A stretch of DNA of 64,000 nucleotides from Candidatus Multivoradales bacterium. GTDB lineage: Bacteria; Acidobacteriota; Thermoanaerobaculia; Multivoradales; J023. Positions 35,991-61,904 of the stretch are shown here, piece after piece (the first letter of the stretch is position 1; each line of letters opens with the position of its first letter). The notes under the pieces are model-generated. The model saw only the letters and a program-made list of their open reading frames with translations. It made no database searches and was not told the origin of the DNA. The position numbers and the translations under genes are program-made. The stretch is from contig CBDFLE010000006.1 in the NCBI GenBank assembly GCA_965248925.1, positions 3,904,001 to 3,968,000 on the forward strand, in the 5' to 3' direction.

Positions 35991-36213
35991 CTATTGTTTG
36001 ACCGTTTCGCGCAGAAATCCAGTATTAGCGACCGACACCGTCTTGGTCGAGCAGAGTCAAGGTTGGGGTAATCGCTTTCAGCGTGCCGCGCTGGCCTTGA
36101 ATCTCGATTGGCTGACCGATGATAAAGAGCCGGCGGGCGTAGGAACCGTTCAGGATGCTGTGGGTGTCTTCGCGGCCGCAGAGGCCGAAAGACAGCCCGA
36201 AGGCCAACGCCAG
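35991..36213 (-). pseudogene. Degenerate 3' fragment of the mscS/CmpX-like gene (repeat copy 1; left module boundary)
   Basis: LAFGLSFGL...GQPIEIQGQRGTLKAITPTLTLLDQDG matches 61083-61313, with a small deletion. Confidence 0.9.
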
Positions 36214-36227
36214 CGCTTAGAAGGTGA

Positions 36228-36491
36228 AGTTCTTACTATTCCTCCCCCGGCCGTCAGTGAATTACCCACAAGTTCTGACGCTTCAATCATAGCGCAATTT
36301 CTGGGCTTCGCCGTTGGCGCCAGGATCTATAGATCCGGCAATTCAAGCCAATTCTTGGCCAGATGAGGTCCAGTCCATAGATCGACCTGTTGAAACTTGC
36401 TGGTCTGGCGGGCTCAACCTGTGGCCAGGGTGCGGCCCGTGAGTGACGAAGCACCTGCCCTGGTCGCTGCTTCGCAGAATCAAATCGAGGC
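36228..36491 (+). promoter_or_regulatory. Conserved control region (copy A1) upstream of Rhs1 with paired palindromic operator-like sites
   Basis: Colinear with 45037-45300, 46036-46299 and 60340-60603. Perfect palindrome GGATCTATAGATCC at 36323-36336 and a second site 48 bp downstream. Confidence 0.7.
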
Positions 36492-36562
36492 ATCAGGAAC
36501 CAACGCCCGCTATACAGAGTCTAAGAGGACGTGGGTAGCAGCTAGAAACAAGGAGAATTATT

Positions 36563-39500
36563 GTGATCCGATCCATCAGCCTCTTCCTTCTCATCAGTCT
36601 CCTTATCCTTCTAAATCTGCCAGCGGCACTGCAAGCCGGCACCGCCTGCAGCGGCGTCCTCACCTACCTCGAACAAGGATTCTCCGCTGACCAACCCTCG
36701 AACTGCTCCACCGGCTCCCGCTGCTACACGCCGGTCATCTCCGGCGCCACCTTCACCCCCGAGGCTGGCTGCGACCCGGCGATCGAATCCTGCGTCATCA
36801 CCATCGAAGTGCCGATCGACTTCGCCGGCAACCACCAAAACGACCCCAGCGCGTCGGGCTTCCTCTACAGCTTCGCGACCGTCACGGTGACCCCCAGCGG
36901 CGGCGGTACCCTGGGCACCTGCGGCTTGTCGGGCGCGGTGATCGAGGAAGATCACGGCACCTTGAGCTGGGGCATCACCAGTTCTTGCAGCGACCTGATG
37001 GCCAGCTACACCATCACCGCCACCGCCTGCCCTTGTGCCTTCGGCCTCTGTCCCCATTGCCCGAAAGAAACCACCCAAGTAGTCGACTTCAGCCTGTCGC
37101 CCCTCTGCCCACCTCCGCCCCCGCCCAGCGGCTGCCCGGAAGATGAAGATTGCCCCTCGTGCGTCGGTGGTGGCAGCGGAATAGGCGGTAGCGCCGGTGG
37201 TGGAGGCGGAGGCGCCTCGCCGCCGCAGAGCGGCCCCGGCGCCCTACTGCGCTACCACGCGGGAGGCGTTGGCCATCCGACCTACCCCGGCTCAGCCGGC
37301 ATCACCGCCGAGTTGGGGCGCTATTGGAGCCACGATTACGCCGAGAGAATCGCTCGCGACCCCGACGACAGCAACGTCTGGCTGCTCACTCGCTACGCTA
37401 CTTTCCGTCGCTTTACGGACTTGGACATGGATGGGGATTACGACCGCACGATTCCCAGCGATGAGTACCGCACCCTGACCAAGACCCCGACCGGCTGGAC
37501 CCTGCTCGATCTAGACGGCACCCTGATGCAATTCGACAACACCGGCCTATGGTCCTCGACCACCGACCGCAACGGCAACGCCAAGACCGCCAACCGCGAT
37601 GGCACCGGCCGGCTGACCACCGTCAGCTTCCCCGATGGTCGCTCGGAGACCTTCACCTACTCGGTGGGCGGCAGGCTGGACTCGATTACAGAAGTCGGCA
37701 TCGACAGCGCCACCGCCAGAACTTGGGGTTACACCTACACCGGTCAAGACCTCACCCGCATCGACCGACCCGACGGCACCGCCTGGGTTTTCCTCTACGA
37801 TGATCCAACTTTGCCGGGCTACATGACTCGAATGAGTCTGGCGGGTACAGACGCTAGCGAGCGGATCGCGGGCTCCTGGGCCTATGATCCCTTCGGCAAT
37901 GTAGTGCAAATGTGGAAAGGCGCAGCCAACTTCAACGATGCCGGCGCCGTCGATCGCTGGTCGATGAGCTTCGACGATACCCAGCTGCCCATGGTCACCA
38001 CGGTCACCGACCCCATGGGCGAGATCTCCACCTACACTCTGGGTCGCGACTCCGAGAGTCGCAAGCCTCGTCTGGAGCAGCTCGAAGGCTCCTGCCCGAG
38101 CTGCGGCACCGGCCCCAACAGCCGGCTGTTCTATGAAGATCCGGCACACCCCCTGCGGCCCACTCGCCAGATTGACGGCGGCGGCACCACGACGCTAACC
38201 ACCTACGACGCCAACGGCCAAGCAATCTCCCGTGTCGAAGCTCTAGGCACGGCGGAGGAGCGCGAGACCACTTGGCAGCGCGACCTCACCTACCCGGCCC
38301 TGATAACCGAGATCGAGCGCCCCTCGACCACCGGCAACCCTCTAGATTTCCGCCGTACAACCTTCACCCTCAGCGGCCAAGGCAACGCCACTGATCGGAT
38401 CGACGAAGGAGTAGAAGACGGCCAGGTCTTCAGCTACACCACCACGACCACCTACACCGCCGAGGGCCAACCCGAAGACCGCGACCCACCCGGCTACGGC
38501 ACCGCCGATGTCACCACCAGCGCCTGGGACGCTGCCCGTGGCGGCCTGGTGTTGGCCAGTCGCACCGATCCGCTGATCGGCAGCACCCTGTTCGGTTACG
38601 ACCCATTCAACCGCCGAACCTCCGTCACCGACCCCAACGGCGTAGCCAGCGAAACGCAGTACGACCCGCTCAATCGTGTTCTGTTCAGCCTCCAGAAAGG
38701 CGCGGTACCGGCCGAAGACCTGATCACCGAGCAGCGCTACACGGTCTTTGGCGATCTCTTCCAAACCGTCCTGCCGCGCGGCAACGTGATCGAATATTCC
38801 TATGATTCCGCAGGCCGACTTGTCTCGATCGAGCGCAAGCCCGATGACCTGCCCGGCAGCCACGTCGAGCGCACCTTCTACACCCTCGATGGCTTTGGTC
38901 ACCGGGTCCGCGAAGAGCTGCAAGGCTGGGACGGCGCGAGCTGGACGAGTGCGTCGACTACCGACTACCTGTACTCGACCCGCTGCCATCTCGACCAGAT
39001 GATCGAAGGCGCGGGCAGCCCCGAGCAGGCGATCACCGAATATGGCTACAATTGCGATGGCGACCTCGAACGCCTCTGGGACGCGAACCATCCATCGGCG
39101 GGCCAGACTGCGGCAGCCAGCACGGTCTACGGCTACGATCCACTCGACCGATTGACCACGGTCAGCCAGCCATTCGGGGGCGCGGCCGGCGGCCAAGCCG
39201 TGACGACCTACGGCTTTGACGTTCAGGATCATCTGACCACGGTGAGGGACCCAGAGGGCACGGTCACCAGCTACGTCCACAGCGATCGAGATCTGCTGAC
39301 CCGCGAGACCTCCGAGGTTGCCGGCGTGACCAGCCATCTGTACAACGAGCACGGCGAGCGCACAGAGACGACCGATGCACGCAGCATCTCCACCCTGCGC
39401 ACCCTCGATGAGCTGGATCGGGTGACCCTGGTCGACTACCCCGACGACACCCTCGACGTGACCTACACCTACGATGACGCGCTGGTGCCCTTCAGCCTCG

Positions 39501-41332
39501 GCCGGTTGACCCGGATCGAGCGTGACGGTCAGCCGATCGACTACCAATACGATCGATTCGGGCGGATGACTCAAGACGGCGAGCTGGCGTACAGCTTCGA
39601 CACTAACGGCAATAAGAGCGAGATCCTGTACCCTGGTGGGGTGAGAGCGCTCTACGGATTCGATCACGCTGACCGTCACCTGACCCTCGATGCCGAGGTG
39701 CCTGGCCAGGGCATCCAAGTGATCGTCACGGGAGCCCTCTACCAACCCATCGGCCCACTGCGCCACCTGACGCGCGGCAATGGCGTCACCGAAAGCCGCC
39801 AGCACGACAGCCGCTATCAGCCCGCCAGCATCACAGCGGTCGGCCCTGGCAGCACCTTGCTCGACTGGGACTACACCACCGATGGGGTCGGCAACATCAC
39901 CGCCATCGGTGATCTGCTCGATTCGCTGAACAACCGCACCTACGCCTACCAGGACTACCAGTATTTCCTCACCCAGGGCGACGGCCCTTGGGGTGCTCTG
40001 GCCTGGGACTACGACAAAATCGGCAATCGGCTCAGCGAAACGCGGGACGGCGCTACCGACATCTACCAGTACCTCGCCAACGCTGCCGCGAGCGGCAATA
40101 CCGCGAAACTCGACCAGATTGCACTCGGTGCAGGCGGCAGTCGCGTCTACACCTTCGACGCAGCCGGCAACCAGACCGGGGTCGACGAGAACGGCGACCC
40201 CGTGGCTTACACGTTCGATGATGCTGGGCGCCTGTCGGCCATCGACCACCCTTCGGCACAGACCAGCTCGACGATGTTCTACGACGGTCGCAGCTATCTA
40301 CGCCAGGCAGTCGGCCGCGAGCCCGACACTTCGGGCAACGCTCTCTTCTGCGATGGCTTTGAAAGCGGTGACATCAGCGCTTGGGGTGATCCGGGGGCCA
40401 GTAGCTGCACAGCTGAGGCCGTAACCGAAGCGGCCTACAGTTCCGACGGTGTGCTGCAACGGCGAGCCGGTGCCACCGGGGCCAATGCAGTGCTCTACTT
40501 CGGAGGGCAGCCTGTAGCCCAGACCGGTGGGACCGGTGTAACCCACCTCACGGCAGACCATCTTGGCACACCGGTGCTAGCTTCTAGCAGTGTCGGCGGC
40601 TCGAACTGGAGTGGCGGATTCGAGCCCTTCGGCAGTGACTTCGCAAATGCCGAAGACGCAGGCGTTTTCCTGCGCTTTCCGGGGCAGTGGGGGGATCTTG
40701 CTTGGAGCACAGCTGGCGAAACGTTCTTCTACAACGTACACCGCTGGTACGAAGCGGGGGCGGGGCGATATAGCAGAATGGACCCGTTGGCCCCGGTCAA
40801 CACTGCGACCTTCAGTGGATCTCCGTTCGCGGCCGACCTCGAGCAAGCCTATGGCTATGGGAAAATGAACCCGCTGTCCCGGACCGATCCCCTCGGCTTG
40901 AAATCACGAATATGTTGCAGGCAGATTCCGGCGGTACCAGCATCTCACTGCTTCATAGAGATCCAGAGAAACGGGAAAAGTACGAAATGTGGCTTGCAAG
41001 GCGGCCGGTTCTCCCCTGGGGAGAAGCCCGGGACGGGCGCGATCAGAAAAGATCACAGTTTTGACGACCCGAAATTCTCCACCTGTGGCAACTGGGTTGA
41101 GGGGTGTGGCACGGATGAGTGCGTTATCGGGACTGCGGGCAACTATGCTAATCCGAGCAAGTACAACGCTGCAAAAGGCCCGAACAGCAACACGTTCGTG
41201 GGTGTGATTGCTCGGCGGTGCGGCCTCAAGCGACCCGAGGGTGCCGGGTGGACTCGTGGTTGGCGGAGGACAAACCCAGCCCAGAGGAAGAAGGGACTAG
41301 AATCTGAGGTGTCGCCATGCAAGCTTCCGTGA
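36563..41332 (+). CDS. Rhs/YD-repeat polymorphic toxin 1 (signal peptide, Cys-rich N-terminus, papain-like tip)
   Basis: RBS AAGGAG; YD repeats; core HLGTP...LRFPGQW...YNVHRWY...DPLG; tip HCFIE...GPNSNTF. Confidence 0.95.
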   Translation: MIRSISLFLLISLLILLNLPAALQAGTACSGVLTYLEQGFSADQPSNCSTGSRCYTPVISGATFTPEAGCDPAIESCVITIEVPIDFAGNHQNDPSASGFLYSFATVTVTPSGGGTLGTCGLSGAVIEEDHGTLSWGITSSCSDLMASYTITATACPCAFGLCPHCPKETTQVVDFSLSPLCPPPPPPSGCPEDEDCPSCVGGGSGIGGSAGGGGGGASPPQSGPGALLRYHAGGVGHPTYPGSAGITAELGRYWSHDYAERIARDPDDSNVWLLTRYATFRRFTDLDMDGDYDRTIPSDEYRTLTKTPTGWTLLDLDGTLMQFDNTGLWSSTTDRNGNAKTANRDGTGRLTTVSFPDGRSETFTYSVGGRLDSITEVGIDSATARTWGYTYTGQDLTRIDRPDGTAWVFLYDDPTLPGYMTRMSLAGTDASERIAGSWAYDPFGNVVQMWKGAANFNDAGAVDRWSMSFDDTQLPMVTTVTDPMGEISTYTLGRDSESRKPRLEQLEGSCPSCGTGPNSRLFYEDPAHPLRPTRQIDGGGTTTLTTYDANGQAISRVEALGTAEERETTWQRDLTYPALITEIERPSTTGNPLDFRRTTFTLSGQGNATDRIDEGVEDGQVFSYTTTTTYTAEGQPEDRDPPGYGTADVTTSAWDAARGGLVLASRTDPLIGSTLFGYDPFNRRTSVTDPNGVASETQYDPLNRVLFSLQKGAVPAEDLITEQRYTVFGDLFQTVLPRGNVIEYSYDSAGRLVSIERKPDDLPGSHVERTFYTLDGFGHRVREELQGWDGASWTSASTTDYLYSTRCHLDQMIEGAGSPEQAITEYGYNCDGDLERLWDANHPSAGQTAAASTVYGYDPLDRLTTVSQPFGGAAGGQAVTTYGFDVQDHLTTVRDPEGTVTSYVHSDRDLLTRETSEVAGVTSHLYNEHGERTETTDARSISTLRTLDELDRVTLVDYPDDTLDVTYTYDDALVPFSLGRLTRIERDGQPIDYQYDRFGRMTQDGELAYSFDTNGNKSEILYPGGVRALYGFDHADRHLTLDAEVPGQGIQVIVTGALYQPIGPLRHLTRGNGVTESRQHDSRYQPASITAVGPGSTLLDWDYTTDGVGNITAIGDLLDSLNNRTYAYQDYQYFLTQGDGPWGALAWDYDKIGNRLSETRDGATDIYQYLANAAASGNTAKLDQIALGAGGSRVYTFDAAGNQTGVDENGDPVAYTFDDAGRLSAIDHPSAQTSSTMFYDGRSYLRQAVGREPDTSGNALFCDGFESGDISAWGDPGASSCTAEAVTEAAYSSDGVLQRRAGATGANAVLYFGGQPVAQTGGTGVTHLTADHLGTPVLASSSVGGSNWSGGFEPFGSDFANAEDAGVFLRFPGQWGDLAWSTAGETFFYNVHRWYEAGAGRYSRMDPLAPVNTATFSGSPFAADLEQAYGYGKMNPLSRTDPLGLKSRICCRQIPAVPASHCFIEIQRNGKSTKCGLQGGRFSPGEKPGTGAIRKDHSFDDPKFSTCGNWVEGCGTDECVIGTAGNYANPSKYNAAKGPNSNTFVGVIARRCGLKRPEGAGWTRGWRRTNPAQRKKGLESEVSPCKLP

Positions 41333-41925
41333 AATTCCAAGCCGCTTTGAGCTTATCGTCATGCCTGCTCTGCGTCTCATGTCTTACAGGAATTAGAGGG
41401 CTGAAGAAGGATCCGAAGTGGGTCAATGCCGTTGTCTCTCAATTGTACTGCGGACAGTCGTTAGGAGAAGTTCAACTCTTGACAGAGCGGCGTATTGAAA
41501 ACACGACGACTCAGCCAGACTTTGGGTCTTTTGTAGTAAGCTCAAAATTCGCCACGATATGGTTTGACTTCCAGAGTTCCAAGCTAGTGAGTGTTACTAC
41601 TGGAAGGATAGACGGGCTTGCGTCTATACGCACATCGCCCAAGACGAATCTCTGTACTGGGGAATTGACTTTCTGGGTGAGTCTCGGATGGATTGTTCCG
41701 CTTGAAGGCGCAGACGTGTACCTGGATGGCGACCTTGTAGAGGCAAATGCCTCCGCCGGTGTCGTGTTTTCGTTCTCTACCGGCAGGCATGAGCTGCGGG
41801 TGGTAAAGGAAGGGTTTGAGCCCATCGTCAAGATTTTTCACTTTGGCCCCGAGGATATGGGCCATGTGTGGCTGGACCTGACGGAGCCGGATGTCCAGCT
41901 GGTCAACACGCAGCCGGAGTCATAA
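41329..41925 (+). CDS. Putative cognate immunity lipoprotein with C-terminal PEGA-like domain
   Basis: GTGA overlap with the Rhs1 stop; lipobox-like CVSC; GADVYLDG...GRHELRVVKEGFEP. Confidence 0.75.
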   Translation: MKFQAALSLSSCLLCVSCLTGIRGLKKDPKWVNAVVSQLYCGQSLGEVQLLTERRIENTTTQPDFGSFVVSSKFATIWFDFQSSKLVSVTTGRIDGLASIRTSPKTNLCTGELTFWVSLGWIVPLEGADVYLDGDLVEANASAGVVFSFSTGRHELRVVKEGFEPIVKIFHFGPEDMGHVWLDLTEPDVQLVNTQPES

Positions 41926-41969
41926 TGCCCAGGGCGGCGATGAAAACCTGAGGTCTTCCAGCTCCCGCA

Positions 41970-42545
41970 GTGCTCCTGGCAATGCTCATTGTTGCGATAA
42001 CACAGGCCTGCTTGTCCCCGCCCTTTGTCGGTAATTTCAGGCCGTGGCCAAGATCCACTGCATTCGTCAAGGGCCTACGTTGTCAGATGACAGAAGCAGA
42101 CCTGAGACAGTACGCAGAGCAGTTTCCCAAGATACTCCTCCACATGCCTGACAGCTTGAGGCATGTGCTTATTGCTCAGAAAGGCGATACGCTCATTCGA
42201 CTAGGGTTGCAAGACGATCTTCTGGAGACATATCACGTATCGTGAACTAGTGGATTTACTAGAAGCTCTTCACTCCTGAAGTATGATCTGTGCAAGAAAC
42301 GCTATTTAGTACACATGAGGCTCGTGAGTTCTAGGGAATACGGCGGCGCCGCCGTGTTGCTGGACGGTGTACTCGTGAGTAAGCTCGACGGATCGGGTGA
42401 TTTCGTGCGCGACATTCCCTTGGGAGTCCACGATTTCCGGATCGAGAAACCCGACCTAGGCACCTGGGTATTGGAGCTGCGCTATGACGAGTCTAGTCCA
42501 GGCCGTGATCGGATCCCGATTGAGGTGATGACCAAGCTGGACTAA
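41970..42545 (+). pseudogene. Orphan immunity paralog (lipoprotein + PEGA) with in-frame TGA at 42243
   Basis: TQAC lipobox; LRCQMT; reads in frame across the stop into YDLCK...GAAVLLDG...GVHDFRIEK. Confidence 0.7.
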
Positions 42546-42604: not shown

Positions 42605-43000
42605 CTAGGCCGCCAGCCGCGCGGCCCTGGACCGTAGCACGTCGCCGGCCTGGTGGTAGCGCATAGCCAACGCGCGGGTGCGGTGCCCGGACAGCTGCAT
42701 GACCTCTTGCAGGCTGACCCAAGCCCGCCCAGCCGAGGTGACAAATCCCGACCTCAACGAATGCCCGCTGTAGTCGGCCGGATCGAGTCCGGTGCGCAGC
42801 GCCCGGTACTTGACGATCTCGGCCAGAGTGCGCGCGGACATGGCGCGGCCGGCGTGTTGGCCATGGCGATCACTCTGCGAAAGATCGCCACGGCCGAGGT
42901 TCCGGCGATCTGGAGCCAAGAATGGAGAGCGTCATGATGTCACTGAGAAAGCCAAATATCGGCATCCACCGGCCCGTGGGCCAGCTTCGCTTGTGGCATC
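42605..43000 (-). pseudogene. Tyrosine recombinase C-terminal relic (copy 1)
   Basis: YSGHSLRSGFVT (HxxR), LSGHRT...RY (H/Y). Frameshifted, N-terminal two thirds missing. Confidence 0.85.
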
Positions 43001-43472: not shown

Positions 43473-45050
43473 CTAGTGCCTCAGGGGCGGGCGGATTCCG
43501 TAGGTCCGTTCGCCTTCTACAGCCTTTCTTGCCGCCTTGATTATCTCGGTGGTCAGCTCGCCTTTGCGCACGAGGCTGGTGAAGTGAGTCACTGCGGCGG
43601 CGGCGATTGCATCGTGGCGGAATGGTTGCAGAAACCTCGCCATTTCTTTCGCGCGCTCTGTAGCCGCTCTTGTCTGGCCGCTGGTGAGCAGCAAATCGAC
43701 GAAATCGAGTGTGGCGAGAGCGGCGCTGAATGGGTCTGTGACGATCAGCCCCTCGATCGCCAGCACTAGGAGTGGCTCAGCGTTGTCAGGTTTCCCGCTG
43801 GCCTTCGCGATCGCTCCGGCCGACCATTGGGCCATCGCTCGTGGGTAAATCGCGTCCTGGGGAATCAGCGCCAGCGCTTGCAGAAGGTATCCCTCGGCCC
43901 GGTCGAATCTCTTGGCCTGCTCATCGATGCTAGCTAGCCCCTGATAGGCTGCCGCTCGGTTGCTCCCCTCGCTATCTGGCAGCAAGGCCAGGGCAGTCCG
44001 ATAGGAATCCGTCGCGGCCGCCGGATCGGGCGCGAGCAAGTACGCGCCTTGGTCTACGAAAACCCTCCCCATGCCTATTCTGTCGCGTTGCGATGCGCAA
44101 ATGGCCATAGCCATATCGGAGACTGTCAAGGCTGCCTCGACTTCGTTGTGGCCGAAGAGGACAACGCTGGTCCTTTGCAGCAAGTCGGCTCTCACCCCTG
44201 GCGGTGCCCAGCATCCGATTACTAAGACTGTCTCCAGGCAGAAGGCGGCGCATTCCAATGAGGCCGCGTGGCGGTGTGCAGAGCCAAGGGCGCCGGCTGC
44301 TCGGCAGAATGCCTCGCCCGCGTCTGGTCCCGTGATCTTGGTGGAGATCTCGACGGCGAGGATCTGCGCTAGCGTTATTGCATCTTTGGGCGCGCGCAGT
44401 CGCAGCTTGTCGATCGCCAGGGCGGCACTCTTGACGCCCGCCAGGCTGCGCCAGCGAGGCTCCACCCGCAGCACCTGCCGGCGGTGGTTGAGTGGCGCGT
44501 GGAGCAAGCAGGCGAAGGCTTCCTCGGTAGTGGGCGCGGAATGTTGCTGGGCCTGGGCTGGGTCCAAGCGGTTGCAAGCGACTTGCCGCGCTGCGGATTG
44601 GAGTCTGAGAATGGCGCTCGGTGGAGTCTTGAGAACGATCTTCGTTGCTTCGCTCTTCGTCTCGGCAGTCTCCGCACCACCCTCGGCCGCTGCCTTGGTC
44701 TTGCCGCTCTGTGTCTCGATCTTGGACTTGGTCTTGATCGTGGGCAGCTTCGCCAGAGTGTCTTGCCGCTTGCCGTGGGTGGCCTCGCGGACTCTGCGGA
44801 GCAGCTCAGCAGGGTCGGGCTTGGTGTTTTCGCTGAGCAGCTCGCCAAGATCGAGGCCCATTCCGCGGGCGCAGGAGAGTAGTTGGTAGCCGGTCAGCTT
44901 GAACACTGGCCGGGTGAGTGCCTCTCGAGTCCAGCCCCGAGCGTGGCCGCTGGCCCGGTCGACAGCAGGTTGGCGGCCGCGGTGCAAAGCGAAGTCGCGG
45001 AGCAGAGCCCGACGCAGCTGCTCAATCCGCTGCTTGTTCTCGCTATTTAT
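43473..45050 (-). CDS. XRE-like HTH + TPR protein (RRNPP-like architecture), copy 1; start codon reads ATA
   Basis: N-terminal RQPAVDRASGHARGWTREAL...YQLLSCARGMGLDLGELL HTH-like segment; C-terminal TPR helices. The frame is open to 45050, where copy 2 has ATG. Confidence 0.7.
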   Translation of the reverse strand: MNSENKQRIEQLRRALLRDFALHRGRQPAVDRASGHARGWTREALTRPVFKLTGYQLLSCARGMGLDLGELLSENTKPDPAELLRRVREATHGKRQDTLAKLPTIKTKSKIETQSGKTKAAAEGGAETAETKSEATKIVLKTPPSAILRLQSAARQVACNRLDPAQAQQHSAPTTEEAFACLLHAPLNHRRQVLRVEPRWRSLAGVKSAALAIDKLRLRAPKDAITLAQILAVEISTKITGPDAGEAFCRAAGALGSAHRHAASLECAAFCLETVLVIGCWAPPGVRADLLQRTSVVLFGHNEVEAALTVSDMAMAICASQRDRIGMGRVFVDQGAYLLAPDPAAATDSYRTALALLPDSEGSNRAAAYQGLASIDEQAKRFDRAEGYLLQALALIPQDAIYPRAMAQWSAGAIAKASGKPDNAEPLLVLAIEGLIVTDPFSAALATLDFVDLLLTSGQTRAATERAKEMARFLQPFRHDAIAAAAVTHFTSLVRKGELTTEIIKAARKAVEGERTYGIRPPLRH

Positions 45051-45300
45051 CCCCCAGGCTCCATTGAATTGATCTCAAGCTCTCGCGCTTCGATCATAGC
45101 GCAATTCCTGGGCTTTCCGGCTGACGCCAAGGTATATAGATCCGGCAGTACAGGTCACTTCTCGGCAAATTGGGGTGCCGTCTATAGATCGATCCGATGA
45201 AACTTGCTGCTCTGGTGGATTCCTTCGCTGACTAAGGTGCGGCCCATGAGTGACAAAACACTGATCCGGGACGCCGCTTCGCGGGATCAAATCGAGGCGA
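45037..45300 (+). promoter_or_regulatory. Divergent control region (copy B1)
   Basis: GGTATATAGATC at 45131 and CGTCTATAGATC at 45179, 48 bp apart. Lies between the HTH-TPR start and the micro-ORFs. Confidence 0.7.
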
Positions 45301-52555: not shown

Positions 52556-52646
52556 AATGTAAACTGAAACTGCCAAAGGGTTGCTGGGGGATGGCGTACG
52601 CCGGGGTGGAATAGGCCTCCGGCGTCCCCTGAACCGGGGACAGGGA

Positions 52647-53222
52647 ATGGGCAATAAAATCCTCTTTTCAACCAGGGCTAAGATCTGTCTAGTCGCTGTC
52701 GTGGTTACAGGGTGTGTCTCCTCGGGAGAGGTCTGGTCCAGGCACGTTGCTGGTCAGCTCCAATGTGGTATGACAATCGGCGAAGTTTCGGATCTTGTAC
52801 AGCCGACTCGGAGCGTCGTTCCCTACAAACATGCCTGGCTGGGCGATCTTATGATCGAGAAGGGGCGTAGCACCGTCTGGTTTTCGATGGGGCCAAGAGG
52901 TGTTGAGGCTTTTCGAATTGCGACGGACGAAATCCTACCTCTGAAATCCGTACGACTTTCGCCCCGGGCGAATCTCTGCACTGGTTAATCGACGCTGATG
53001 CTCGAAATCCTCACGAAACGGGAGTTCATAGGTGCATCGGTTTTCTTGGACGGAAAGCAGACGGCTGGGATTGACGAACTGATGTTTGCTCGCCTAGAGA
53101 TTCCCTTGGGCGAGCATGAAATCCGTACCGAGAAAGAGGGTCTTGATCCGTTCGTGAGACACCTTTCGTACTCGGGAACGGACCGAGGTGACCAACGACT
53201 CGACCTCTCGGGTAGAAGTTGA
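52647..53222 (+). pseudogene. Orphan immunity paralog (lipoprotein + PEGA) with in-frame TAA at 52986
   Basis: VTGC lipobox; LQCGMT; SPRANLCTG* aligns to SPKTNLCTGE of 41329-41925; continues in frame to GASVFLDG...GEHEIRTEKEG. Confidence 0.75.
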
Positions 53223-53267
53223 TGTGGCGCGACCTCGCAAGGCTCCAGGCTGGAGAGATGCACCGCC

Positions 53268-53618
53268 GTGATAAAGCAGACACAAGCCGTACTAGTTGCC
53301 TTGGTAACTACTGGGTGTTTCTCCAGTGGATTGCAGAACAAGTTTCGAGAATCCCTAGGATGCGGCCTGACGGTTGAAGATGTTCGGGTAATAGCTGGGA
53401 ATTCGAGTGTGCGCCACTTCGCTTGCTCTTACGCAGGTGGCCGGCCTCTGACCTGCTCCGCTTCCTGGGGGCGGCGAGGCTATGATTGCAAGTTTGATTC
53501 GAAGGGCGGCCTGATTTCCTACAGACACGTCAAATTAAGGCCGCTAACCGAGGTGGTGTTCTCAGAGTCAGTGATGCTCTGTACTGCACCATCTATGGAT
53601 GACCACTCAACGAACTAG
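53268..53618 (+). CDS. Orphan immunity lipoprotein
   Basis: TTGC lipobox; LGCGLTVEDV; WGRRGY.C.FDS shared with 52208-52555. GTG start overlaps a toxin-tail remnant stop. Confidence 0.7.
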   Translation: MIKQTQAVLVALVTTGCFSSGLQNKFRESLGCGLTVEDVRVIAGNSSVRHFACSYAGGRPLTCSASWGRRGYDCKFDSKGGLISYRHVKLRPLTEVVFSESVMLCTAPSMDDHSTN

Positions 53619-53729: not shown

Positions 53730-54124
53730 CTACCCAGCCAGCTTCACGGCCCTGGACCGGAGCACGTCGCCGGCCTGGTGGTAGCGCATAGCCAACGCGC
53801 GGGTGCGGTGCCCGGACAGCTGCATGACCTCTTGCAGGCTGACCCAAGCCCGCCCAGCCGAGGTGACAAATCCCGACCTCAACGAATGCCCGCTGTAGTC
53901 GGCCGGATCGAGTCCGGTGCGCAGTGCCCGGTACTTGAGGATTTCGGCCAGAGTGCGCGCGGACATGGCGCGGCCGGCGTGTTGGCCATGGCGATCACTC
54001 TGAGAAAGACCGCCACGGCCGCGGTTCCGGCGATCTGGAGCCAAGAATCGAGAGCGGTGTGATGCCACTGAGAAAGCCAAATATCGGCATCCACCGGCCC
54101 GTGGGTCAGCTTCGCTTGTGGCAT
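53730..54124 (-). pseudogene. Tyrosine recombinase C-terminal relic (copy 2)
   Basis: ALDSWLQIAG...VFLRV / frameshift / DRHG...SGHSLRSGFVT...SGHRT...RY. Confidence 0.85.
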
Positions 54125-56005
54125 CGATCAAACTTTCCCTCTTGAGTGTTAACGAGAATATTCTCTAGCTGCTGGGCAGCTTACCTTGAACTGATCGGCC
54201 CTTCTTATAGCTGGGCCGATTCCATGCCTTCACGATTTCCAACCACCGCGAGCACTTGGCATGCAGCCATGTCTCAGCGGCAACCGTCGATGGGCCTGAC
54301 GCAGTACAAGCGGCGCTGTGGATAACGCTGCTTCGCGCGCCGATCTACTGCCGCCAAAGGCACCCTTGCCACCAAGCCCGCCGCTGGCCACCAAATCCAA
54401 CCTCGCTAGACTGCCCGCTTACAGGCCGCTCGTTGCGAGCAATGACGCCCGCGACGCGGTGGCCGGGGGTAATCTGTGATGCCAACCAAGACAGTCGCAC
54501 AACCGACTCTGAATCCTTGGAGCAACGGCAGCGAACCGAGCGGCTTCCGCAGCGTGATCAAGCCAAGCGGCTGGAGCACCGCGATCTTGCCGAACGGCTA
54601 GTGCCTCAGGGGCGGGCGGATTCCGTAGGTCCGTTCGCCTTCTACAGCCTTTCTTGCCGCTTTGATTATCTCGGTGGTCAGCTCGCCTTTGCGCACGAGG
54701 CTGGTGAAGTGAGTCACTGCGGCGGCGGCGATTGCATCGTGGCGGAATGGTTGCAGAAACCTCGCCATTTCTTTCGCGCGCTCTGTAGCCGCTCTTGTCT
54801 GACCGCTGGTGAGCAGCAAATCGACGAAATCGAGTGTGGCGAGAGCGGCGCTGAATGGGTCTGTGACGATCAGCCCCTCGATCGCCAGCACTAGGAGTGG
54901 CTCAGCGTTGTCAGGTTTCCCGCTGGCCTTCGCGATCGCTCCGGCCGACCATTGGGCCATCGCTCGTGGGTAAATCGCGTCCTGGGGAATCAGCGCCAGC
55001 GCTTGCAGAAGGTATCCCTCGGCCCGGTCGAATCTCTTGGCCTGCTCATCGATGCTAGCTAGCCCCTGATAGGCTGCCGCTCGGTTGCTCCCCTCGCTAT
55101 CTGGCAGCAAGGCCAGGGCAGTCCGATAGGAATCCGTCGCGGCCGCCGGATCGGGCGCGAGCAAGTACGCGCCTTGGTCTACGAAAACCCTCCCCATGCC
55201 TATTCTGTCGCGTTGCGATGCGCAAATGGCCATAGCCATATCGGAGACTGTCAAGGCTGCCTCGACTTCGTTGTGGCCGAAGAGGACAACGCTGGTCCTT
55301 TGCAGCAAGTCGGCTCTCACCCCTGGCGGTGCCCAGCATCCGATTACTAAGACTGTCTCCAGGCAGAAGGCGGCGCATTCCAATGAGGCCGCGTGGCGGT
55401 GTGCAGAGCCAAGGGCGCCGGCTGCTCGGCAGAATGCCTCGCCCGCGTCTGGTCCCGTGATCTTGGTGGAGGTCTCGACGGCGAGGATCTGCGCTACGGA
55501 ATGTGTCAATGAAAGTGAGACACTTTCTTCTGGGAATTAGTACGGAATCGGTAGTGGCTCCGGCACCATCGCTTTCAGCGAGGGCGCGCAGCCAGGGGTC
55601 TCGCCTGGTGCGTCGTTGTGTACGCGGTGTGTCACTACGTTCTCGGTATCGACTGGGTCAGTGCTGGCGGCGGTGGTCGGCGGGTTGATCCAGACCTTGT
55701 CACTGGGCTCCGGCAAAGCCGGCGCTCGCCGCTTGAAGCGGCTTGGATGAGCGGCTGAGGCGGCGGCGAGGACTTCTCGACGTTGCTCCAGTACTGAGGC
55801 CGTGAGGCCGTAGTGGACGGTCTCTGGCGTCAACAAGCCGAGTCCTGTGTGGTAGTGCTGCGTGTTGTACCAGCCGATGAACGAGCGGCAGAATGCTCGT
55901 GCATCTTCCAGTGATCCGAAGCGGTCGGGAAAGCTCGGATGGTACTTGAGCGTCTTGAACTGGGCCTCAGAGAACGGATTGTCGTTGCTCGTGTAGGGCC
56001 GGTTC

Positions 56006-58534
56006 CAGACCTCCTGACCTACCCCTCCTAACCCTCTGAAAACACAGGACCGCCCCTCAGAGGTGGTGCGGACCCAAAACTGTCCGCTTTTTTCGGTGCC
56101 GAGGCATGATCGAGCATGGCACTGACGAGCGAGCACACCGTCCTGTTCCCAGACCACGCCGGGGTCCCCGATGGGGTTGTGGTGATCAACGACCGCTGCC
56201 GCCTCCAGCAGAGGGGCGGCTATCGGGTGGTGGTGGTCAGCGGCATGCCGCTCGCTCACTTCGCTGCCGGCGACAGGACAGGCGAGGCCCACGCGATGGT
56301 GAGTCTCGTTGAATTGGGCTGGGCACAGCAACGCGAGGTGGCCCTTGCGTTCGCTTGTGATGTGCGGACTGTGCGCCGGAATCAGCGCCGCTTCGAAGAA
56401 GGTGGGCTGGCTGCTCTGGGCCGGCCGCGCGGTTTTCCCCGGGGTCAGTCTCGGGTAGCGCAGGGCCGCCTGGACGCGGTCAACGGCTGGAAGGCCGAGG
56501 GTGTGTCGAATCGCGAGATTGGCCGGCGGCTGGGCATCGATGAGAAGGCCGTTCGCAAGCTCGCCAAGCGCCTGGGCTGGAAAGAGCGGTCGGTAGTGCA
56601 GATGACGATGCCCTTCGAGAGTGCGGACCCAAAACTGTCCGGCTCTGATGAGCAGCAGGTCGACGGCCCCCTGAAAACTGCGGATCTTGCGCTCGACGCT
56701 GAGGGTGGCGGTGACCCAGCGGCTGCGGACCCAAAACTGTCCGCTTCTGCGTCCGAGCAAGATCAGGTTCCCCTCTCGCTGGACCTCGATCCAGCGGATC
56801 GCGCCAGCGATCGGCTGCTGGCGAGGCTGGGATTCCTCGATGATGCGGCGCCGATCTTCGGAGCGGCGACCCAGCTACCGGGCGCCGGTGCTCTGCTGGC
56901 GATTCCCGCCCTGGTGGACAGCGGCGTGCTCTCCATCGCGCAGGAGCTGTACGGCAGCATCGGGCCGGCCTTCTATGGGCTGCGCACCACTCTGGTAACC
57001 CTGCTGCTGATGGCACTGTTGCGGGTCAAGCGACCCGAAGGGCTCAAGGAGCGCTCACCCCGGCATTTGGGTCAGCTTCTCGGGCTCGACCGAGCGCCGG
57101 AAGTGAAAACCTTGCGCAACAAGCTCGCTCGGCTGGCCGCGCATGGCCTGGCCGCGGATCTCGGTCGCGCCCTCGCTCAGCGCCGGGTCGCCACCAGGGG
57201 CCATGCCATGGGCTTCCTCTACGTGGACGGGCATGTGCGCGCCTACCACGGTGGCCGAGAGATTCCCAAGACACACGTAGCGCGGATGCGGATCGCGATG
57301 CCGGCCACCACCGACTACTGGGTCAACGATGCTGAGAGCGAGCCTCTCTTCGTGGTTCCCACCGAGGCCAACAAGGGGCTTGCGACGATGCTTCCCCTCA
57401 TTCTCGAAGAGGTACGAAAGCTACTCGGAGACCGGCGAGTCACCGTCGTCTTCGACCGTGGGGGTTGGAGCCCGAAGCTGTTTGCGAAGCTCATCGCCAA
57501 GAAGTTCGACATCCTCACATACCGAAAGGCCCCCTTTCGTCCGGTGCCGTTGAGCAAGTTCGGGCAGATCAAGGACACGATCCACGGGCGGAAGCTCGAG
57601 TACCTCCTCGCCGATCAGCGTATCTACCTCGAGTATGGCCCGAGGAAGAAGCGCAAGCGGCTGTACCTGCGCCAGGTCACCCGCCTCTGCGACAACGGCC
57701 ACCAGACGTCCATCATCACCTCCCGCCGCGACCTCTCCACACTCGAGGTCGCCTACCGCATGTTCGATCGTTGGAGGCAAGAGAACTTCTTCAAATACCT
57801 GCGCGAAGAATTCGCACTCGATGCCCTGGTGGACTATGGCACCGAGCCAGCGGACGCCGCCCGCGATGTGCCGAATCCCGAGCGCGGCAAGATCAATGCA
57901 GAGCTGCGCAAAGCTCACGCACATCTCGAGCAGCTCCGGGCCCACATCGGGATCGCTGCTCTTGAAAACCGCGAGGATCGGCGGCGCACGATGCGCGGAT
58001 TCAAGATCGCCAACGCCGCCATCTCCGCCAGGGTCCGGGCAGCGATAGAGCAGATCACCGAACTCGAGAACCAGCGCGCGACCCTCCCCGTCCGCGTCCC
58101 CGTCCAAGAGGTCGTCGAAGCGGATGTCATCAAGCTGTCCGTCGAGCGCAAGCACCTCACCGATATTCTCAAGATGGTCGCCTACCAGGCCGAAGGTGAT
58201 CTTCTCCGGCTCCTATCACCCCACTACCGCCGCACCGAGCAGGAGGGACGCACCCTGATCCAAAGCGCTTTCGCGGCCGGCGGCGATATGGAGGTTACCG
58301 ACACCGTGCTGCTCCTTTCCATCGACCCGCTCAGCTCTCCCCACAAGACGGCGGCGATCGCCGCCGTCTGCGAAGAACTCAACGCTACCGCCACCCACTT
58401 CCCCGGCACCGAGCTACGGATGCGGTTCGCGATCAAGAAGGCGCCACCCCGGAGCCTGGCCTTCCCAGGGCCTCGGAACACCTCCGGAGAGGCTCAACCG
58501 GACATTTGAGAAAAAGGGTATGTCAGGAGTTCTG
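56006..58534 (+). mobile_element. Nested insertion sequence (DDE transposase with N-terminal HTHs)
   Basis: Terminal IRs CAGACCTCCTGAC / GTCAGGAGTTCTG; 5-bp target duplication GGTTC at 56001-56005 and 58535-58539. Confidence 0.92.
56116..58509 (+). CDS. Transposase (797 aa; two HTH motifs + YVDGH, VVFDRGG, RWRQENFFK)
   Basis: DDE catalytic motifs of the IS4/IS1634-like superfamily; fills the IR-bounded element. Confidence 0.88.
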   Translation: MALTSEHTVLFPDHAGVPDGVVVINDRCRLQQRGGYRVVVVSGMPLAHFAAGDRTGEAHAMVSLVELGWAQQREVALAFACDVRTVRRNQRRFEEGGLAALGRPRGFPRGQSRVAQGRLDAVNGWKAEGVSNREIGRRLGIDEKAVRKLAKRLGWKERSVVQMTMPFESADPKLSGSDEQQVDGPLKTADLALDAEGGGDPAAADPKLSASASEQDQVPLSLDLDPADRASDRLLARLGFLDDAAPIFGAATQLPGAGALLAIPALVDSGVLSIAQELYGSIGPAFYGLRTTLVTLLLMALLRVKRPEGLKERSPRHLGQLLGLDRAPEVKTLRNKLARLAAHGLAADLGRALAQRRVATRGHAMGFLYVDGHVRAYHGGREIPKTHVARMRIAMPATTDYWVNDAESEPLFVVPTEANKGLATMLPLILEEVRKLLGDRRVTVVFDRGGWSPKLFAKLIAKKFDILTYRKAPFRPVPLSKFGQIKDTIHGRKLEYLLADQRIYLEYGPRKKRKRLYLRQVTRLCDNGHQTSIITSRRDLSTLEVAYRMFDRWRQENFFKYLREEFALDALVDYGTEPADAARDVPNPERGKINAELRKAHAHLEQLRAHIGIAALENREDRRRTMRGFKIANAAISARVRAAIEQITELENQRATLPVRVPVQEVVEADVIKLSVERKHLTDILKMVAYQAEGDLLRLLSPHYRRTEQEGRTLIQSAFAAGGDMEVTDTVLLLSIDPLSSPHKTAAIAAVCEELNATATHFPGTELRMRFAIKKAPPRSLAFPGPRNTSGEAQPDI

Positions 58535-60339
58535 GGTTCAGCGACCGTGTCATCCCGAGATCGGCCAGCAGTAGAGCCACTGGCTTGGATGTCATGCTCG
58601 AACCGCGGTCCGAGTGCAAGGTAAGTCGATCTCGCTCAACACCTTGCTTCTCAACACTGTCGGCGATCAACCGCTTCGCGAGCCCTCCGGACTCGCGGCA
58701 GGCGAGCATCCAGCCGACGATGTAGCGGCTGAAGACGTCCAGAATTACGTAAAGGTAGTAGTGGGTCCACTTCACCGGGCCCTTGAGCTTGGTGATGTCC
58801 CACGACCACACCTCGTTCGGCCCTGTGGCCAGCAGTTCGGGCTTGGTGTAGTTGGGATGACGCCGCTGACGGCGTCGCTCGCGCAGCTCGCCCTCAGACT
58901 CCAGGACCCGGTACATGGTGCGCACCGAGCAGATATGGCGCTGATCCTCGTCCAGCAGCGCCGCCCAGACTTGACGCGGCGAGCGGTCGACGAAGCGCTC
59001 CGAGTGCAACACATCGAGGACCTCCTGGCGTTCAGCGGGCGTCAATGCCAGCGGCGGTCGAGGCCGCGTTGATAGCTGCGGCCCTGCGCTCTGCTGCCGA
59101 CGGCGGCGATAGAAAGTGGCTCTGGGGACCGCCAAGGCGACGCAGGCTGCTTGCACCCCCACCGTCTCGGCCAGCGGCGCCACAGCGCTCATGGCTGGCT
59201 CTCGCTCGGCTCGATCCCTAGCAGCCGGGAAAGTTTTTTTTGGACATCGATGATCGTCTCGGCTTTGTACAGCTGATGCTTGAGCCGGGCATTCTCACGC
59301 TCAAGCTCCGCGACGCGGCGGGCCTCGGCAGAGACCGGTCGACGCTTGCGACCGCGCTTCTTCGACAGACCGGCCAGAGCTCCCGTGTCGCGCTGACGGC
59401 GCCACGTCGACAGTAGCGAGGAATACAGACCCTCCTGGCGAAGCAGGGCGCCAATCTCGCCGGGCTTGCTACAGGCGTCGGCGGCCTGGACGATGCGCAG
59501 CTTGTACGACGCGCTGTACCGCCGCCGCTTCGCCTTCTCAGCTACCTCGGGATCTGGTCGGTCAGCACCCATATCTCGCAGCTCGTGGCTTGGACTCGCC
59601 ATGGTGATTGCTCTCCACACCCTCACTAATTTCTCGGTACTTGAGTGTCTCACTTACATTGGCACAGAGGGATCGCGCTATTGCATCCTCGGGTGCGCGC
59701 AGTCGCAGCTTGTCGATCGCCAGGGCGGCACTCTTGACGCCCGCCAAGCTACGCCAGCGAGGCTCCACCCGCAGCACCTGCCGGCGGTGGTTGAGTGGCG
59801 CGTGGAGCAAGCAGGCGAAGGCTTCCTCGGTAGTGGGCGCGGAATGTTGCTGGGCCTGGGCTGGGTCCAAGCGGTTGCAAGCGACTTGCCGCGCTGCGGA
59901 TTGGAGTCTGAGAATGGCGCTCGGTGGAGTCTTGAGAACGATCTTCGTTGCTTCGCTCTTCGTCTCGGCAGTCTCCGCACCACCCTCGGCCGCTGCCTTG
60001 GTCTTGCCGCTCTGTGTCTCGATCTTGGACTTGGTCTTGATCGTGGGCAGCTTCGCCAGAGTGTCTTGCCGCTTGCCGTGGGTGGCCTCGCGGACTTTGC
60101 GGAGCAGCTCAGCAGGGTCGGGCTTGGTGTTTTCGTTGAGCAGCTCGCCAAGATCGAGGCCCATTCCGCGGGCGCAGGAGAGTAGTTGGTAGCCGGTCAG
60201 CTTGAACACTGGCCGGGTGAGTGCCTCCCGAGTCCAGCCCCGAGCGTGACCGCTGGCCCGGTCGACAGCAGGTTGGCGGCCGCGGTGAAAAGCGAAGTCG
60301 CGGAGCAGGGCCCGACGCAGCTGTTCAATCCGCTGCTTG

Positions 60340-60603
60340 TTCTCGCTATTCATCCCCCAGGCTCCATTGAATTGATCTCAAGCTCTCGCGCTTCGATCAT
60401 AGCGCAATTCCTGGGCTTTCCGGCTGACGCCAAGGTATATAGATCCGGCAGTACAGGTCACTTCTCTGCAAAATGGGGTGCCGTCTATAGATCGATCCGA
60501 TGAAACTTGCTGCTCTGGTGGATTCCTTCGCTGACTAAGGTGCGGCCCATGAGTGACGAAACACTGATCTGGGACGCCGCTTCGCGGGATCAAATCGAGG
60601 CGA
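60340..60603 (+). promoter_or_regulatory. Divergent control region copy B2
   Basis: Near-identical to 45037-45300. Confidence 0.7.
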
Positions 60604-60823
60604 AGGCGCGGGCGCTGATGCTAGGGGTCGCTAGGTGGCTAGCGCGCCGCGGTCGGGGCACATGAACGCTCCAGCGGTCGCTCCGATCGTGCTACAGCAG
60701 GCCCGCGCAGCACTGCTTGAAGTCGCGACGCACTTGGTTCAGTTCGGGCTCAAGTCCCTCAGCTTGCTGACTACAGAAAACGCCGCCTCCCTCGCGGACA
60801 GTCGGTCAGCTGGGTGGATATAG
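60549..60823 (+). CDS. Two coupled micro-ORFs (60549-60665, 60662-60823), copy 2
   Basis: Same frames and ATGA overlap as 45246-45520. Confidence 0.5.
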
Positions 60824-61065
60824 GACCGACCGATTTAGGATCTGGCGAGGGAATCAGCCCTCGCTTTGACCCGCGCCGGCTGGCGACCTTCTGCTGTTGG
60901 CAGTTCCCCCTGCCGCGGTCGCTGGTCGGCTGTTTTGTCCGCAGTAAGACTCGAACCAGGGGGCCGCCCTCCAAGTGGGTGGCGTTGGCCCGGCCGGTGG
61001 GGTTCGGAGCGTGAGTGCTTGGGCGCTCGCGCTTCCCCCTCGCAGCCACCGGCCGGGCTTCTCTG
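60801..61065 (+). ncRNA. Candidate structured RNA, copy 2
   Basis: All stems of 45498-45762 are retained; an A>G change (TTGGAC>TTGGGC) adds a pair to the inner stem. Confidence 0.5.
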
Positions 61066-61082
61066 TTGGGCGTGGCTGCGAC

Positions 61083-61904
61083 TTACTGTTTGACTGCTTG
61101 GCGCAGAAAGACAGTATTGGCGACCGACACCGTCTTGCCGTCTTGGTCGAGCAGGGTCAAGGTTGGAGTGATCGCTTTCAGCGTGCCGCGCTGGCCTTGA
61201 ATCTCGATTGGCTGACCGATGACGAAGACCCGGCGGGCGTAGAAACCGGCCAGGATGCTGTGGGTGACTTCGCGGCTGCCGAGGCCGAATGACAGACCGA
61301 AGGCCAACGCCAGTCCAGCCAGCGAGCAGAAAGTGACGATGCGGACGATGTCGGTGTCGATTCCCAACTGGCTGAAGGCCATGATGCCGGCGATGAACAG
61401 GATCAGGCCGGAGATCGCACTGCCCATGGCCGAGCCGGCATCGAAGCCAGAACTTTTCGCCGCCTGGCCGACCGCGCGGCCGGCAAAGGGACCCGCCAGG
61501 CTGCCAAGCAGCAAGATCAGGAGGGCCGAAACCAGGTTGGGCATGAAGGCAAGGAACGATCCCAGGGCTTGCGATACCGCTGTCAGGCCGAGTCCGTCTG
61601 CGGCGGTGCGGGCAAACAAGAAAAGCAACAGGAAGTAAACCAGCCGCGGTAACAACTGACTCATTGGCTGGCGGATGCCGATCCGGCTTACCGCCTGGTC
61701 GATGCCCACTTTCTGCGCCAGGGAGTCGACTCCGACTCGACTCAGCAAGCCGCGCAGCAGGCGCTCGACGAGTTTGGATACCACCAGGGCGACGATCAGC
61801 AAGATGAGGCCGGTGAGCACCTTTGGGGCGGCGCCGATCACCGAACTCACCAGCTGCTGGTAAGTCTCGATCAGCTCGCTCTTGATCAGCAGGGTCGTTT
61901 CCAT
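61083..61904 (-). CDS. Small-conductance mechanosensitive channel / CmpX-like TM-helix protein (intact target gene)
   Basis: TM_helix repeats (FMPNLVSALLILLLG), AFGLSFGLGSRE, short MscS beta domain. Confidence 0.88.
   Translation of the reverse strand: METTLLIKSELIETYQQLVSSVIGAAPKVLTGLILLIVALVVSKLVERLLRGLLSRVGVDSLAQKVGIDQAVSRIGIRQPMSQLLPRLVYFLLLFLFARTAADGLGLTAVSQALGSFLAFMPNLVSALLILLLGSLAGPFAGRAVGQAAKSSGFDAGSAMGSAISGLILFIAGIMAFSQLGIDTDIVRIVTFCSLAGLALAFGLSFGLGSREVTHSILAGFYARRVFVIGQPIEIQGQRGTLKAITPTLTLLDQDGKTVSVANTVFLRQAVKQ

Follow-up and report, generated by a model that had tools for sequence, protein, structure and literature searches.

Cis-mobilizable elements (CIMEs), tandem accretion, SGI1 arrays and ICESt1-related islands at the 3' end of fda are described in the available part of PMC5704250. 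The element e14 of E. coli K-12 is flanked by icd and an icdC fragment (available part of PMC13626634), and RHS polymorphic toxins with a Sec signal ("T2SS/Sec-dependent", where T2SS is the type II secretion system) appear in the accessible text of Zhang et al. 2012 (PMC3482391). We analyzed a stretch of 64,000 nucleotides, hereafter the window, from Candidatus Multivoradales bacterium (Acidobacteriota; assembly GCA_965248925.1, contig CBDFLE010000006.1, positions 3,904,001 to 3,968,000 of the forward strand). In the window, two consecutive modules with one Rhs toxin gene each were delimited by three copies of the 3' end of an MscS/CmpX-like channel gene. The arrangement, in a soil-type bacterium, is real, but it varies locally on kinds of island and toxin that are already known. 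The modules are probably a CIME-like pair of decayed integrated elements that descend from one ancestor and whose Rhs cargo has been continually remodelled.

The modules resembled CIMEs and accreted islands (PMC5704250, in the part available) in having lost integration and transfer genes, in standing in tandem with a chimeric middle site, and in having relatives with a relaxase and an integrase in the same cell. However, the repeats here were long (106-230 nt) and diverged, whereas short identical cores are given in that text; no cognate integrase could be assigned, and sibling elements lay at three unrelated genes. As with e14 and the icd-icdC pair, the element appears to have brought a substitute, slightly different 3' end and to have left the displaced native end at its far side. 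By contrast, e14 is a prophage with its own integrase (PMC13626634, same part), and the modules had no phage genes and no integrase of their own. The Rhs genes shared with the Sec-signal RHS toxins a signal-peptide N-terminus, RHS repeats, an Rhs core, a variable low-GC tip followed by small immunity-like genes, and mosaic cores common to paralogues. Unlike the toxins covered by the accessible text of PMC3482391, the toxin here was the cargo of a small island behind a duplicated, putatively regulator-controlled promoter, and no orphan tips were detected. The original prediction had called the locus an undescribed system, which was overstated, since tandem decayed islands with a chimeric site (PMC5704250) and Sec-signal Rhs toxins (PMC3482391) are both described in the parts available. 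Full-text word searches, which are no proof of absence, found no description of the backbone, namely an XRE-tetratricopeptide repeat (TPR) regulator, a small-gene operon (g-operon), a promoter duplicated before the cargo, and the occurrence of one backbone at three different gene ends. Overall, the observation in that prediction was partly confirmed and its interpretation partly supported.

BLAST comparison of the window with itself found the last ~230 bp of the channel gene again at 35992-36213 and 45780-46009 (87% identity, E 8e-78), confirming the three direct copies that had been predicted:

35992..36213, reverse strand: copy 1, attL-like displaced 3' end of the channel gene; left part unique with an 8-nt deletion, right part equal to copy 2
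45780..46009, reverse strand: copy 2, middle chimeric 3' end of the channel gene, resembling copy 3 in its left part and copy 1 in its right part
61084..61313, reverse strand: copy 3, attR-like end of the intact channel gene, as read from the substitution pattern

When the three copies were aligned, copies 1 and 2 had their right part and right flank in common, copies 3 and 2 had their left part and left flank in common, and all three were identical around alignment columns 194-245 (the shared core). Copy 1 matched channel residues 198-256 in tblastn and contained an internal stop. In order, the copies were native-left/element-right, element/element and element-left/native-right. The substitutions confirmed that the middle repeat is a hybrid, as had been suspected, and the series corresponds to attL, chimeric and attR sites, as would be expected for tandem elements that recombined within a homologous segment. 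The three-copy pattern, together with sibling elements of the same layout, also supported the predicted insertion at the 3' end of the gene with duplication of that end. The middle copy lay within a 98-codon open reading frame (ORF; 45779-46075, reverse strand), which would place the C-terminal ~75 residues of the channel behind a new N-terminus and is probably not expressed.

Module 1 (E1, 35992-45779) was 9,788 bp and module 2 (E2, 45780-61083) was 15,304 bp, so that the proposed unit of ~9.8 kb held for the first module and not for the second. Module 2 was longer because of a nested 4.2-kb insertion sequence (IS) and a longer immunity block. Self-comparison bore out two colinear modules, with blocks 35992-40753 and 45780-50558 at 92.1% identity, 42563-44371 and 53688-55496 at 96.7%, and 44372-46033 and 59675-61336 at 97.3%; the Rhs genes started at 36563 and 46371, exactly the 9808 bp apart that had been noted. 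The insertions in module 2 were:

55497..59674, no strand assigned: nested IS3-family element, 4.2 kb; orfA at 59189-59653, rve pieces at 58494-59192 and 55537-56760
56116..58509: second IS inside the IS3-family element, with a Transposase_29 gene

Copies of the module-2 insertion elsewhere in the genome were 99.8% identical, and read contigs contained the IS3-only joint. The earlier statement that only the Rhs core and tip and the immunity block differ between modules was wrong; the IS splits the regulator gene of module 2, and the regulator of module 1 has ATA instead of ATG.

It is highly improbable that a single module was wrongly written twice during assembly. The Rhs cores form a 15-member repeat family, and no short Logan contig (four runs, one sample) spanned the middle repeat with both flanks, or the stretch as a whole, as such an error would allow. 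However, the modules differed in their tips, their immunity blocks, the IS in one of them and hundreds of substitutions, and unique stretches of both were error-free in the independent contig sets of the four runs. Further, an 848-nt Logan contig (45049-45896) joined the end of module 1 to the middle repeat, and the modules sit on a 5.2-Mb contig.

Both modules carried a gene for a helix-turn-helix (HTH) and TPR regulator:

43473..45047, reverse strand: regulator 1, XRE-like HTH plus TPR, 524 codons from the ancestral start
54598..55496, reverse strand: C-terminal part of regulator 2, residues ~205-504
59675..60353, reverse strand: N-terminal part of regulator 2, ATG start at 60353

The nested IS (55497-59674) cut the module-2 gene in two. 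In regulator 1, ATA stood in place of the ancestral ATG and the next usable start was a TTG at 44987, indicating that control is probably impaired in both modules. An AlphaFold (AF2) model from a 54-sequence alignment (predicted local distance difference test score, pLDDT, 89; predicted template modelling score, pTM, 0.86) had a six-helix N-domain (residues 1-91) connected by a disordered linker (98-133) to a TPR superhelix (144-512). Four of the 40 relatives scanned scored Pfam HTH_31/HTH_3 at their N-terminus, and these regions aligned with the regulator N-domain. The regulator is thus modelled as an XRE-like HTH fused to TPR repeats, with the HTH + TPR architecture. RRNPP-type regulators also consist of an N-terminal XRE-like HTH and a TPR superhelix, with a small ORF adjoining. 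Unlike in that family, the neighbouring small ORF here was a stub of a 140-amino acid (aa) gene without a signal sequence, with no peptide ligand indicated; the disordered linker of ~40 residues and the host, from a Gram-negative phylum, were further differences.

A profile search returned 4380 representative relatives of the TPR part. Seven copies of the regulator, full-length or fragmentary, were found in the genome, in the window and five other places, and two of the seven looked intact. A word-index search for relatives gave three proteins, two of them from this genome; a scan of genome contigs gave one weak, partial match, and a metagenome scan gave none. The backbone seems nearly private to this genome. 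Related TPR regulators lay directly upstream of Rhs genes at four further complete loci and one fragmentary locus. In these loci the TPR gene was oriented divergently to three genes: one of 140 aa, one of 330 aa that has a g3-like domain, and one that scored as RadC/JAB (3.5e-32) at the single locus where it was scanned. The complete units were:

C5:271894-280965: recurrent unit of TPR regulator and Rhs, contig C5
C6:773322-782211: recurrent unit of TPR regulator and Rhs, contig C6
C6:3021153-3030185: recurrent unit of TPR regulator and Rhs, contig C6
C6:4472791-4481554: recurrent unit of TPR regulator and Rhs, contig C6

Upstream of another Rhs locus, an AraC-type HTH was fused to the same TPR domain (C6:2554649-2556307).

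Elsewhere in the genome, each regulator paralogue was oriented divergently to a g1-g5 operon, which consisted of 4-5 small genes. The window operon was reduced to a g1 stub (first ~33 residues) and the terminators, with g2-g5 absent. No Pfam or PHROGs family was found for g1-g5 and the plasmid proteins, and no NCBIfam family for the g4-g5 fusion of contig C3 or the 330-aa g3-like protein; g4 resembled a degenerate RadC/JAB by eye only. A 263-nt control region occurred four times in the window (starts 36229, 45036, 46037 and 60339), confirming that it recurs in each module:

36229..36491, forward strand: control region A1; boxes at 36329 and 36377; includes the first ~17 codons of g1
45036..45298, forward strand: control region B1, divergent from regulator 1; boxes at 45136 and 45184
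46037..46299, forward strand: control region A2; boxes at 46136 and 46185
60339..60601, forward strand: control region B2, with the g1 remnant behind it; boxes at 60439 and 60487
45246..45362, forward strand: micro-ORF 1, remnant of g1; 19/33 residues identical to a 140-aa paralogue (E 1e-9)
45359..45520, forward strand: micro-ORF 2, 53 codons, probably not a gene
45520..45779, forward strand: GC-rich hairpins, two of which precede T-runs, module 1
60823..61083, forward strand: terminator-like hairpins, module 2

Regions A1 and A2, which precede the Rhs genes, were copies of the divergent promoter region between the regulator and g1, including the first g1 codons. Two ATAGATC boxes were kept in all four regions at a spacing of 48-49 nt, while the regions were otherwise 72-76% identical. 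ATAGATC occurred 12 times in the window against 2.3 expected, nine of these within control regions, and the paired motif was found at those four places alone in the 8-Mb genome. We infer from this conservation that the boxes are an operator or promoter core that would wire the Rhs genes to the element's own switch. The regulator may bind the paired boxes and co-regulate its own side and the Rhs genes.

The two predicted micro-ORFs fared differently. The first was the remnant of a ~140-aa gene, and the second had no detectable relative; as a stub of g3 it was rejected (BLASTP E 9.2). No gene for an exported signalling pro-peptide was found beside the regulator, where micro-ORF 1 is the g1 stub and micro-ORF 2 is without relatives. 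Folding confirmed the structured region, which at 45520-45782 had an energy of -137.3 kcal/mol, compared with -118.8 ± 5.1 for shuffled sequences (z -3.6). It was homologous to the terminator hairpins that close the g1-g5 operon in the siblings and on contig C1. No Rfam match was obtained at E <= 1 over 35800-61500. The region was also considered as an origin of transfer (oriT) and rejected: the homologous hairpins of C1 lie ~320 nt upstream of nikA/mobA, and the likely oriT repeat in the C1 sequence was absent from the window. No attP-like match to chromosomal genes was found in the C1 hairpin region.

Elements with the same backbone were present elsewhere in the genome:

C6:2645370-2651804: sibling element at the thrB 3' end; 130-nt repeat, 88.5%
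C6:616337-624319: sibling element at the 3' end of a 541-aa gene; 106-nt repeat, 93.4%
C6:3815585-3823515: third sibling, of two-promoter design

In the first two siblings, the target-gene end was followed by a promoter copy and the cargo, then by the regulator, its promoter and the g-operon, and finally by the hairpins and the target gene. The thrB and 541-aa siblings had non-Rhs cargo behind the duplicated promoter, and neither contained an integrase. No flanking repeat was found for the third sibling.

These siblings bear on whether the toxins are regulated at all. The HTH-TPR protein could be a housekeeping regulator of the mobile backbone, with Rhs having landed behind a dead copy of the promoter. 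The regulator and g-operon do occur without Rhs in the thrB, 541-aa-gene and C6:3815 elements and on C1, both window copies of the regulator look defective, and no sigma-70-like promoter was seen in the control regions. However, neither box has changed in A1 or A2 although the surrounding sequence diverged by 24-35%, siblings carried other cargo behind the same duplicated promoter, and the four complete loci and the fragmentary one mentioned above each have a related TPR regulator immediately upstream of Rhs. We regard an unregulated toxin as rather doubtful.

They also bear on how the elements entered. It is possible, though not what we would expect, that no site-specific recombinase ever acted. 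The locus would then have arisen by Campbell-type homologous entry of circular or linear DNA with a captured channel-gene end, or as a stack of displaced ends from homology-anchored imports out of relatives (sequential displacement, or homology-facilitated illegitimate recombination). At 106-230 nt the repeats are long, they are diverged (87-93%), and each of the three targets has an unrelated one; no backbone element has an integrase, and the left junctions of the elements vary. The integrase gene of contig C3 has a stack of its own displaced 3' ends, among them a 347-nt repeat (97%). Random import scars, however, would not produce a backbone of the same order between repeats at three different genes, and long, diverged substitute gene ends are also found in integrase-driven elements such as e14 with icd and the icdC fragment (available part of PMC13626634).

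A tyrosine recombinase relic had been predicted in each module, and its presence was confirmed by a Pfam Phage_integrase match (3.4e-6):

42605..42931, reverse strand: tyrosine-recombinase relic 1, Phage_integrase 3.4e-6; last 88-104 codons of a 370-aa integrase
53730..54044, reverse strand: tyrosine-recombinase relic 2, breakpoint as in relic 1

Both window relics matched residues ~266/283-370 of the 370-aa integrase alone. Intact 370-aa integrases, 84-86% identical to the relic, were found on C1 and C3. The block 36496-42918, from the Rhs leader to the relic, was colinear with C3:44716-38920, and integrase relics also lay 3' of Rhs genes on C5 and C3. The breakpoint of the window relics was at C1 position 226, and that of the C3 and C5 relics at 257. 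By this placement the relic is part of the Rhs cargo and does not demonstrably derive from an integration module of the element. The proposal that the element had lost most of its integrase therefore stands in that the relic is real, and fails in that the relic travels with the Rhs cargo and not with the backbone. The common relic breakpoint and the common deletion of the g-operon trace E1 and E2 back to a single copy that had already decayed.

Contig C1 overlapped itself (1-10776 = 18745-29517, 99.9%), indicating a circle of ~18.7 kb; it is probably a circular mobilisable plasmid of that size. It encoded ParA, a NikA/MobA relaxase (cut by a copy of the IS3 element), a TPR regulator, g2, g4, g5, hairpins and the intact 370-aa integrase. 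The plasmid-like C3 encoded DnaB, ParA, a regulator with g1-g5, two Tn3-type transposases, two Rhs genes and the same integrase as C1. No channel-gene-like attP was found on C1 or C3, and no relaxase or other transfer gene among the window ORFs scanned. At C3:35752-39235, the intact integrase gene was followed by three successively shorter copies of its own 3' end, a stack located between the integrase gene and an Rhs immunity gene.

With such integrases at hand, the pair could also have formed by tandem accretion, in which two sibling elements integrated successively, the later one using the att site of the earlier one and an integrase provided in trans (e.g., the 370-aa protein of C1/C3). 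The chimeric middle site is the outcome of accretion in the available part of PMC5704250, the intact integrases of the same genome are 84-86% identical to the relic, and the divergence of E1 from E2 locally reaches ~10%, A1 and A2 included. However, the same hybrid site is also yielded by unequal crossing-over, both modules share the g-operon deletion and the relic breakpoint, and C1 and C3 lack a channel-gene-like attP. Accretion is, in our judgement, rather unlikely.

The cargo itself consisted of the following:

36563..41332, forward strand: Rhs1, 1589 aa; core to residue 1446, 143-aa tip from 40901
46371..51110, forward strand: Rhs2, 1579 aa; core to residue 1433, 146-aa tip from 50670
41317..42545, forward strand: immunity-candidate block 1; 202-aa PEGA-domain protein with a signal/lipoprotein-like N-terminus, ORFs of 91 and 76 aa; GC 52-56%
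51056..53618, forward strand: immunity-candidate block 2; 161-aa protein with multiple transmembrane segments and a 130-aa protein with a transmembrane anchor; GC 51-55%

RHS/YD repeats were matched by PF05593 (5.7e-31 in Rhs1, 5.1e-34 in Rhs2) and also by TIGR01643. The Rhs-associated core TIGR03696 scored 43.6 bits in Rhs2 and 32.2 bits in Rhs1, the latter slightly below the cut-off of 32.5. An Rhs core typically closes with a DPxGL-type motif before the tip, and the motifs DPLGL and DPKGL were present in the translations. Both proteins had a hydrophobic N-terminal leader (read by eye) and a Cys-rich N-domain. No Pfam match to a PAAR or VgrG trafficking domain was obtained in residues 1-613 or in the whole of Rhs1 and Rhs2, which together with the leader placed both in the Sec-signal class. 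Nucleotide similarity between the two genes stopped at 40753/50558, and the tips were weakly related (E 5e-4 over 47 residues). The GC content was 60-69% in the cores and dropped to 51-56% in the tips and the ORFs behind them. Tip 1 matched DUF3750 weakly (E 0.0033), and no PDB sequence matched it at E <= 1; for tip 2, Pfam gave no match. Orphan tips were not detected in either module. Block 2 also held two paralogous ~115-aa lipoprotein-like ORFs and a split PEGA-like pair. The immunity candidates showed lipoprotein, membrane or PEGA-like features, the weak PEGA match being the sole family match.

Rhs loci of this family numbered 15 in the 8-Mb, six-contig genome. Compared in steps of 400 nt, the two window genes were most similar to each other over their first ~1.6 kb (96-98.5%); beyond that, other Rhs loci matched them better, at up to 99.8%. 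Exchange of sequence within this large paralogue family accounts for the differing "warheads" of Rhs1 and Rhs2, and the predicted diversification of the warhead was supported in this form. Replacement of Rhs tips by recombination (sequential displacement) has reportedly been described.

The native surroundings of the pair were as follows:

35059..35940, reverse strand: DUF481 gene, native neighbour at the island's far end; Pfam PF04338, 1e-33
61083..61904, reverse strand: intact MscS/CmpX-like channel gene, 273 aa; Pfam MS_channel_1st_1, 5.7e-19
61911..62848, reverse strand: 107-aa ORF and extracytoplasmic function (ECF) sigma factor, native, upstream of and co-directional with the channel gene

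The channel gene was full length, its residues 1-273 aligning to a 273-aa orthologue of genome G027. Across 30 loci with channel orthologues (29 metagenome loci and G027; orthologues merely 42-58% identical), the ECF sigma factor was upstream of the channel gene in 19, and Rhs or the regulator was downstream in none. The order ECF sigma factor, 107-aa ORF (with a C-terminal PQN repeat) and channel gene was kept in many of the metagenome loci. A second channel paralogue begins divergently at 63107. Distant from the modules, the window also contained a 178-nt direct repeat (86%) at 3885-4062 and 5763-5936.

In the sequence of events that we favour, a CIME-like pair of decayed elements from one ancestor, an element would have recombined into the 3' end of the channel gene and supplied a replacement gene end. 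Its ancestral backbone comprised the XRE-like HTH-TPR regulator, divergent from the promoter of a 4-5-gene operon ending in terminator hairpins, and a second copy of that promoter region would drive the cargo. At this locus the g-operon was deleted to the g1 stub and terminators, a state common to both modules. The cargo is an Rhs block, also present on C3 and C5, made up of leader, Sec-signal Rhs, immunity-like genes and the 3' relic of the integrase. The pair would then have come from one already-decayed element, for which we favour unequal crossing-over between the flanking repeats. Recombination with the remaining 13 Rhs loci later replaced the 3' halves, tips and immunity blocks of Rhs1 and Rhs2. 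The first insertion may have been made by a tyrosine integrase at the shared core, since lost or acting in trans, or else by host homologous recombination. Of the predicted amplification from one integrated element, descent of both modules from one decayed ancestor was upheld by the operon deletion and the relic breakpoint; duplication, re-integration in trans and homologous integration were not separable.

Several results weigh against this course of events, in its insertion step as well as in its regulatory part. No integrase or trace of one was present in the three other backbone elements; because the relic is part of the block running from the Rhs leader, it is not good evidence for an integrase of the element's own, and the site-specific step rests on analogy. 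The three target repeats had no obvious common core and the left junction fell at differing points of the control region in three elements, which illegitimate or homologous events would fit too. Duplication, re-integration and homologous integration are, as said, indistinguishable. Divergence between E1 and E2 was patchy (0 to ~10% per 200 nt), so a single recent duplication was not shown and gene conversion must be invoked. No empty site was seen among the 30 loci, none of them from a close relative (42-58% identity); DUF481 was directly downstream of the channel orthologue in none. With regard to the regulator, Foldseek with the whole model returned generic TPR proteins alone, the N-domain folded by itself gave a poor model (pLDDT 53), and outside this genome a single full-length relative (66% identity) turned up, on a contig of 3978 bp. 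A scan of the control regions (44950-46450) gave no canonical sigma-70 promoter site.

A more specific mechanism is conceivable, and we think it improbable. The island would lack an integrase and would retarget by swapping a gene-end homology cassette of 100-230 nt, held between the terminator end and the cargo promoter. Entry would be by host homologous recombination and leave the target intact, and the cargo (Rhs here, small metallopeptidase-like proteins elsewhere) would be expressed from the duplicated regulator-gated promoter.

The locus shows how Sec-signal Rhs toxins, here a family of 15 members, are spread and reshuffled in a large Acidobacteriota-type genome. They travel as cargo of small decaying islands and plasmids, with gene conversion homogenising their cores and cassette swaps altering their tips. 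The XRE-TPR family recurs beside Rhs genes and, if it truly controls the toxin promoters, would be among the few known dedicated transcriptional switches of Rhs. Finally, one backbone at three gene ends without an integrase offers a concrete case for how islands choose and reach their targets.

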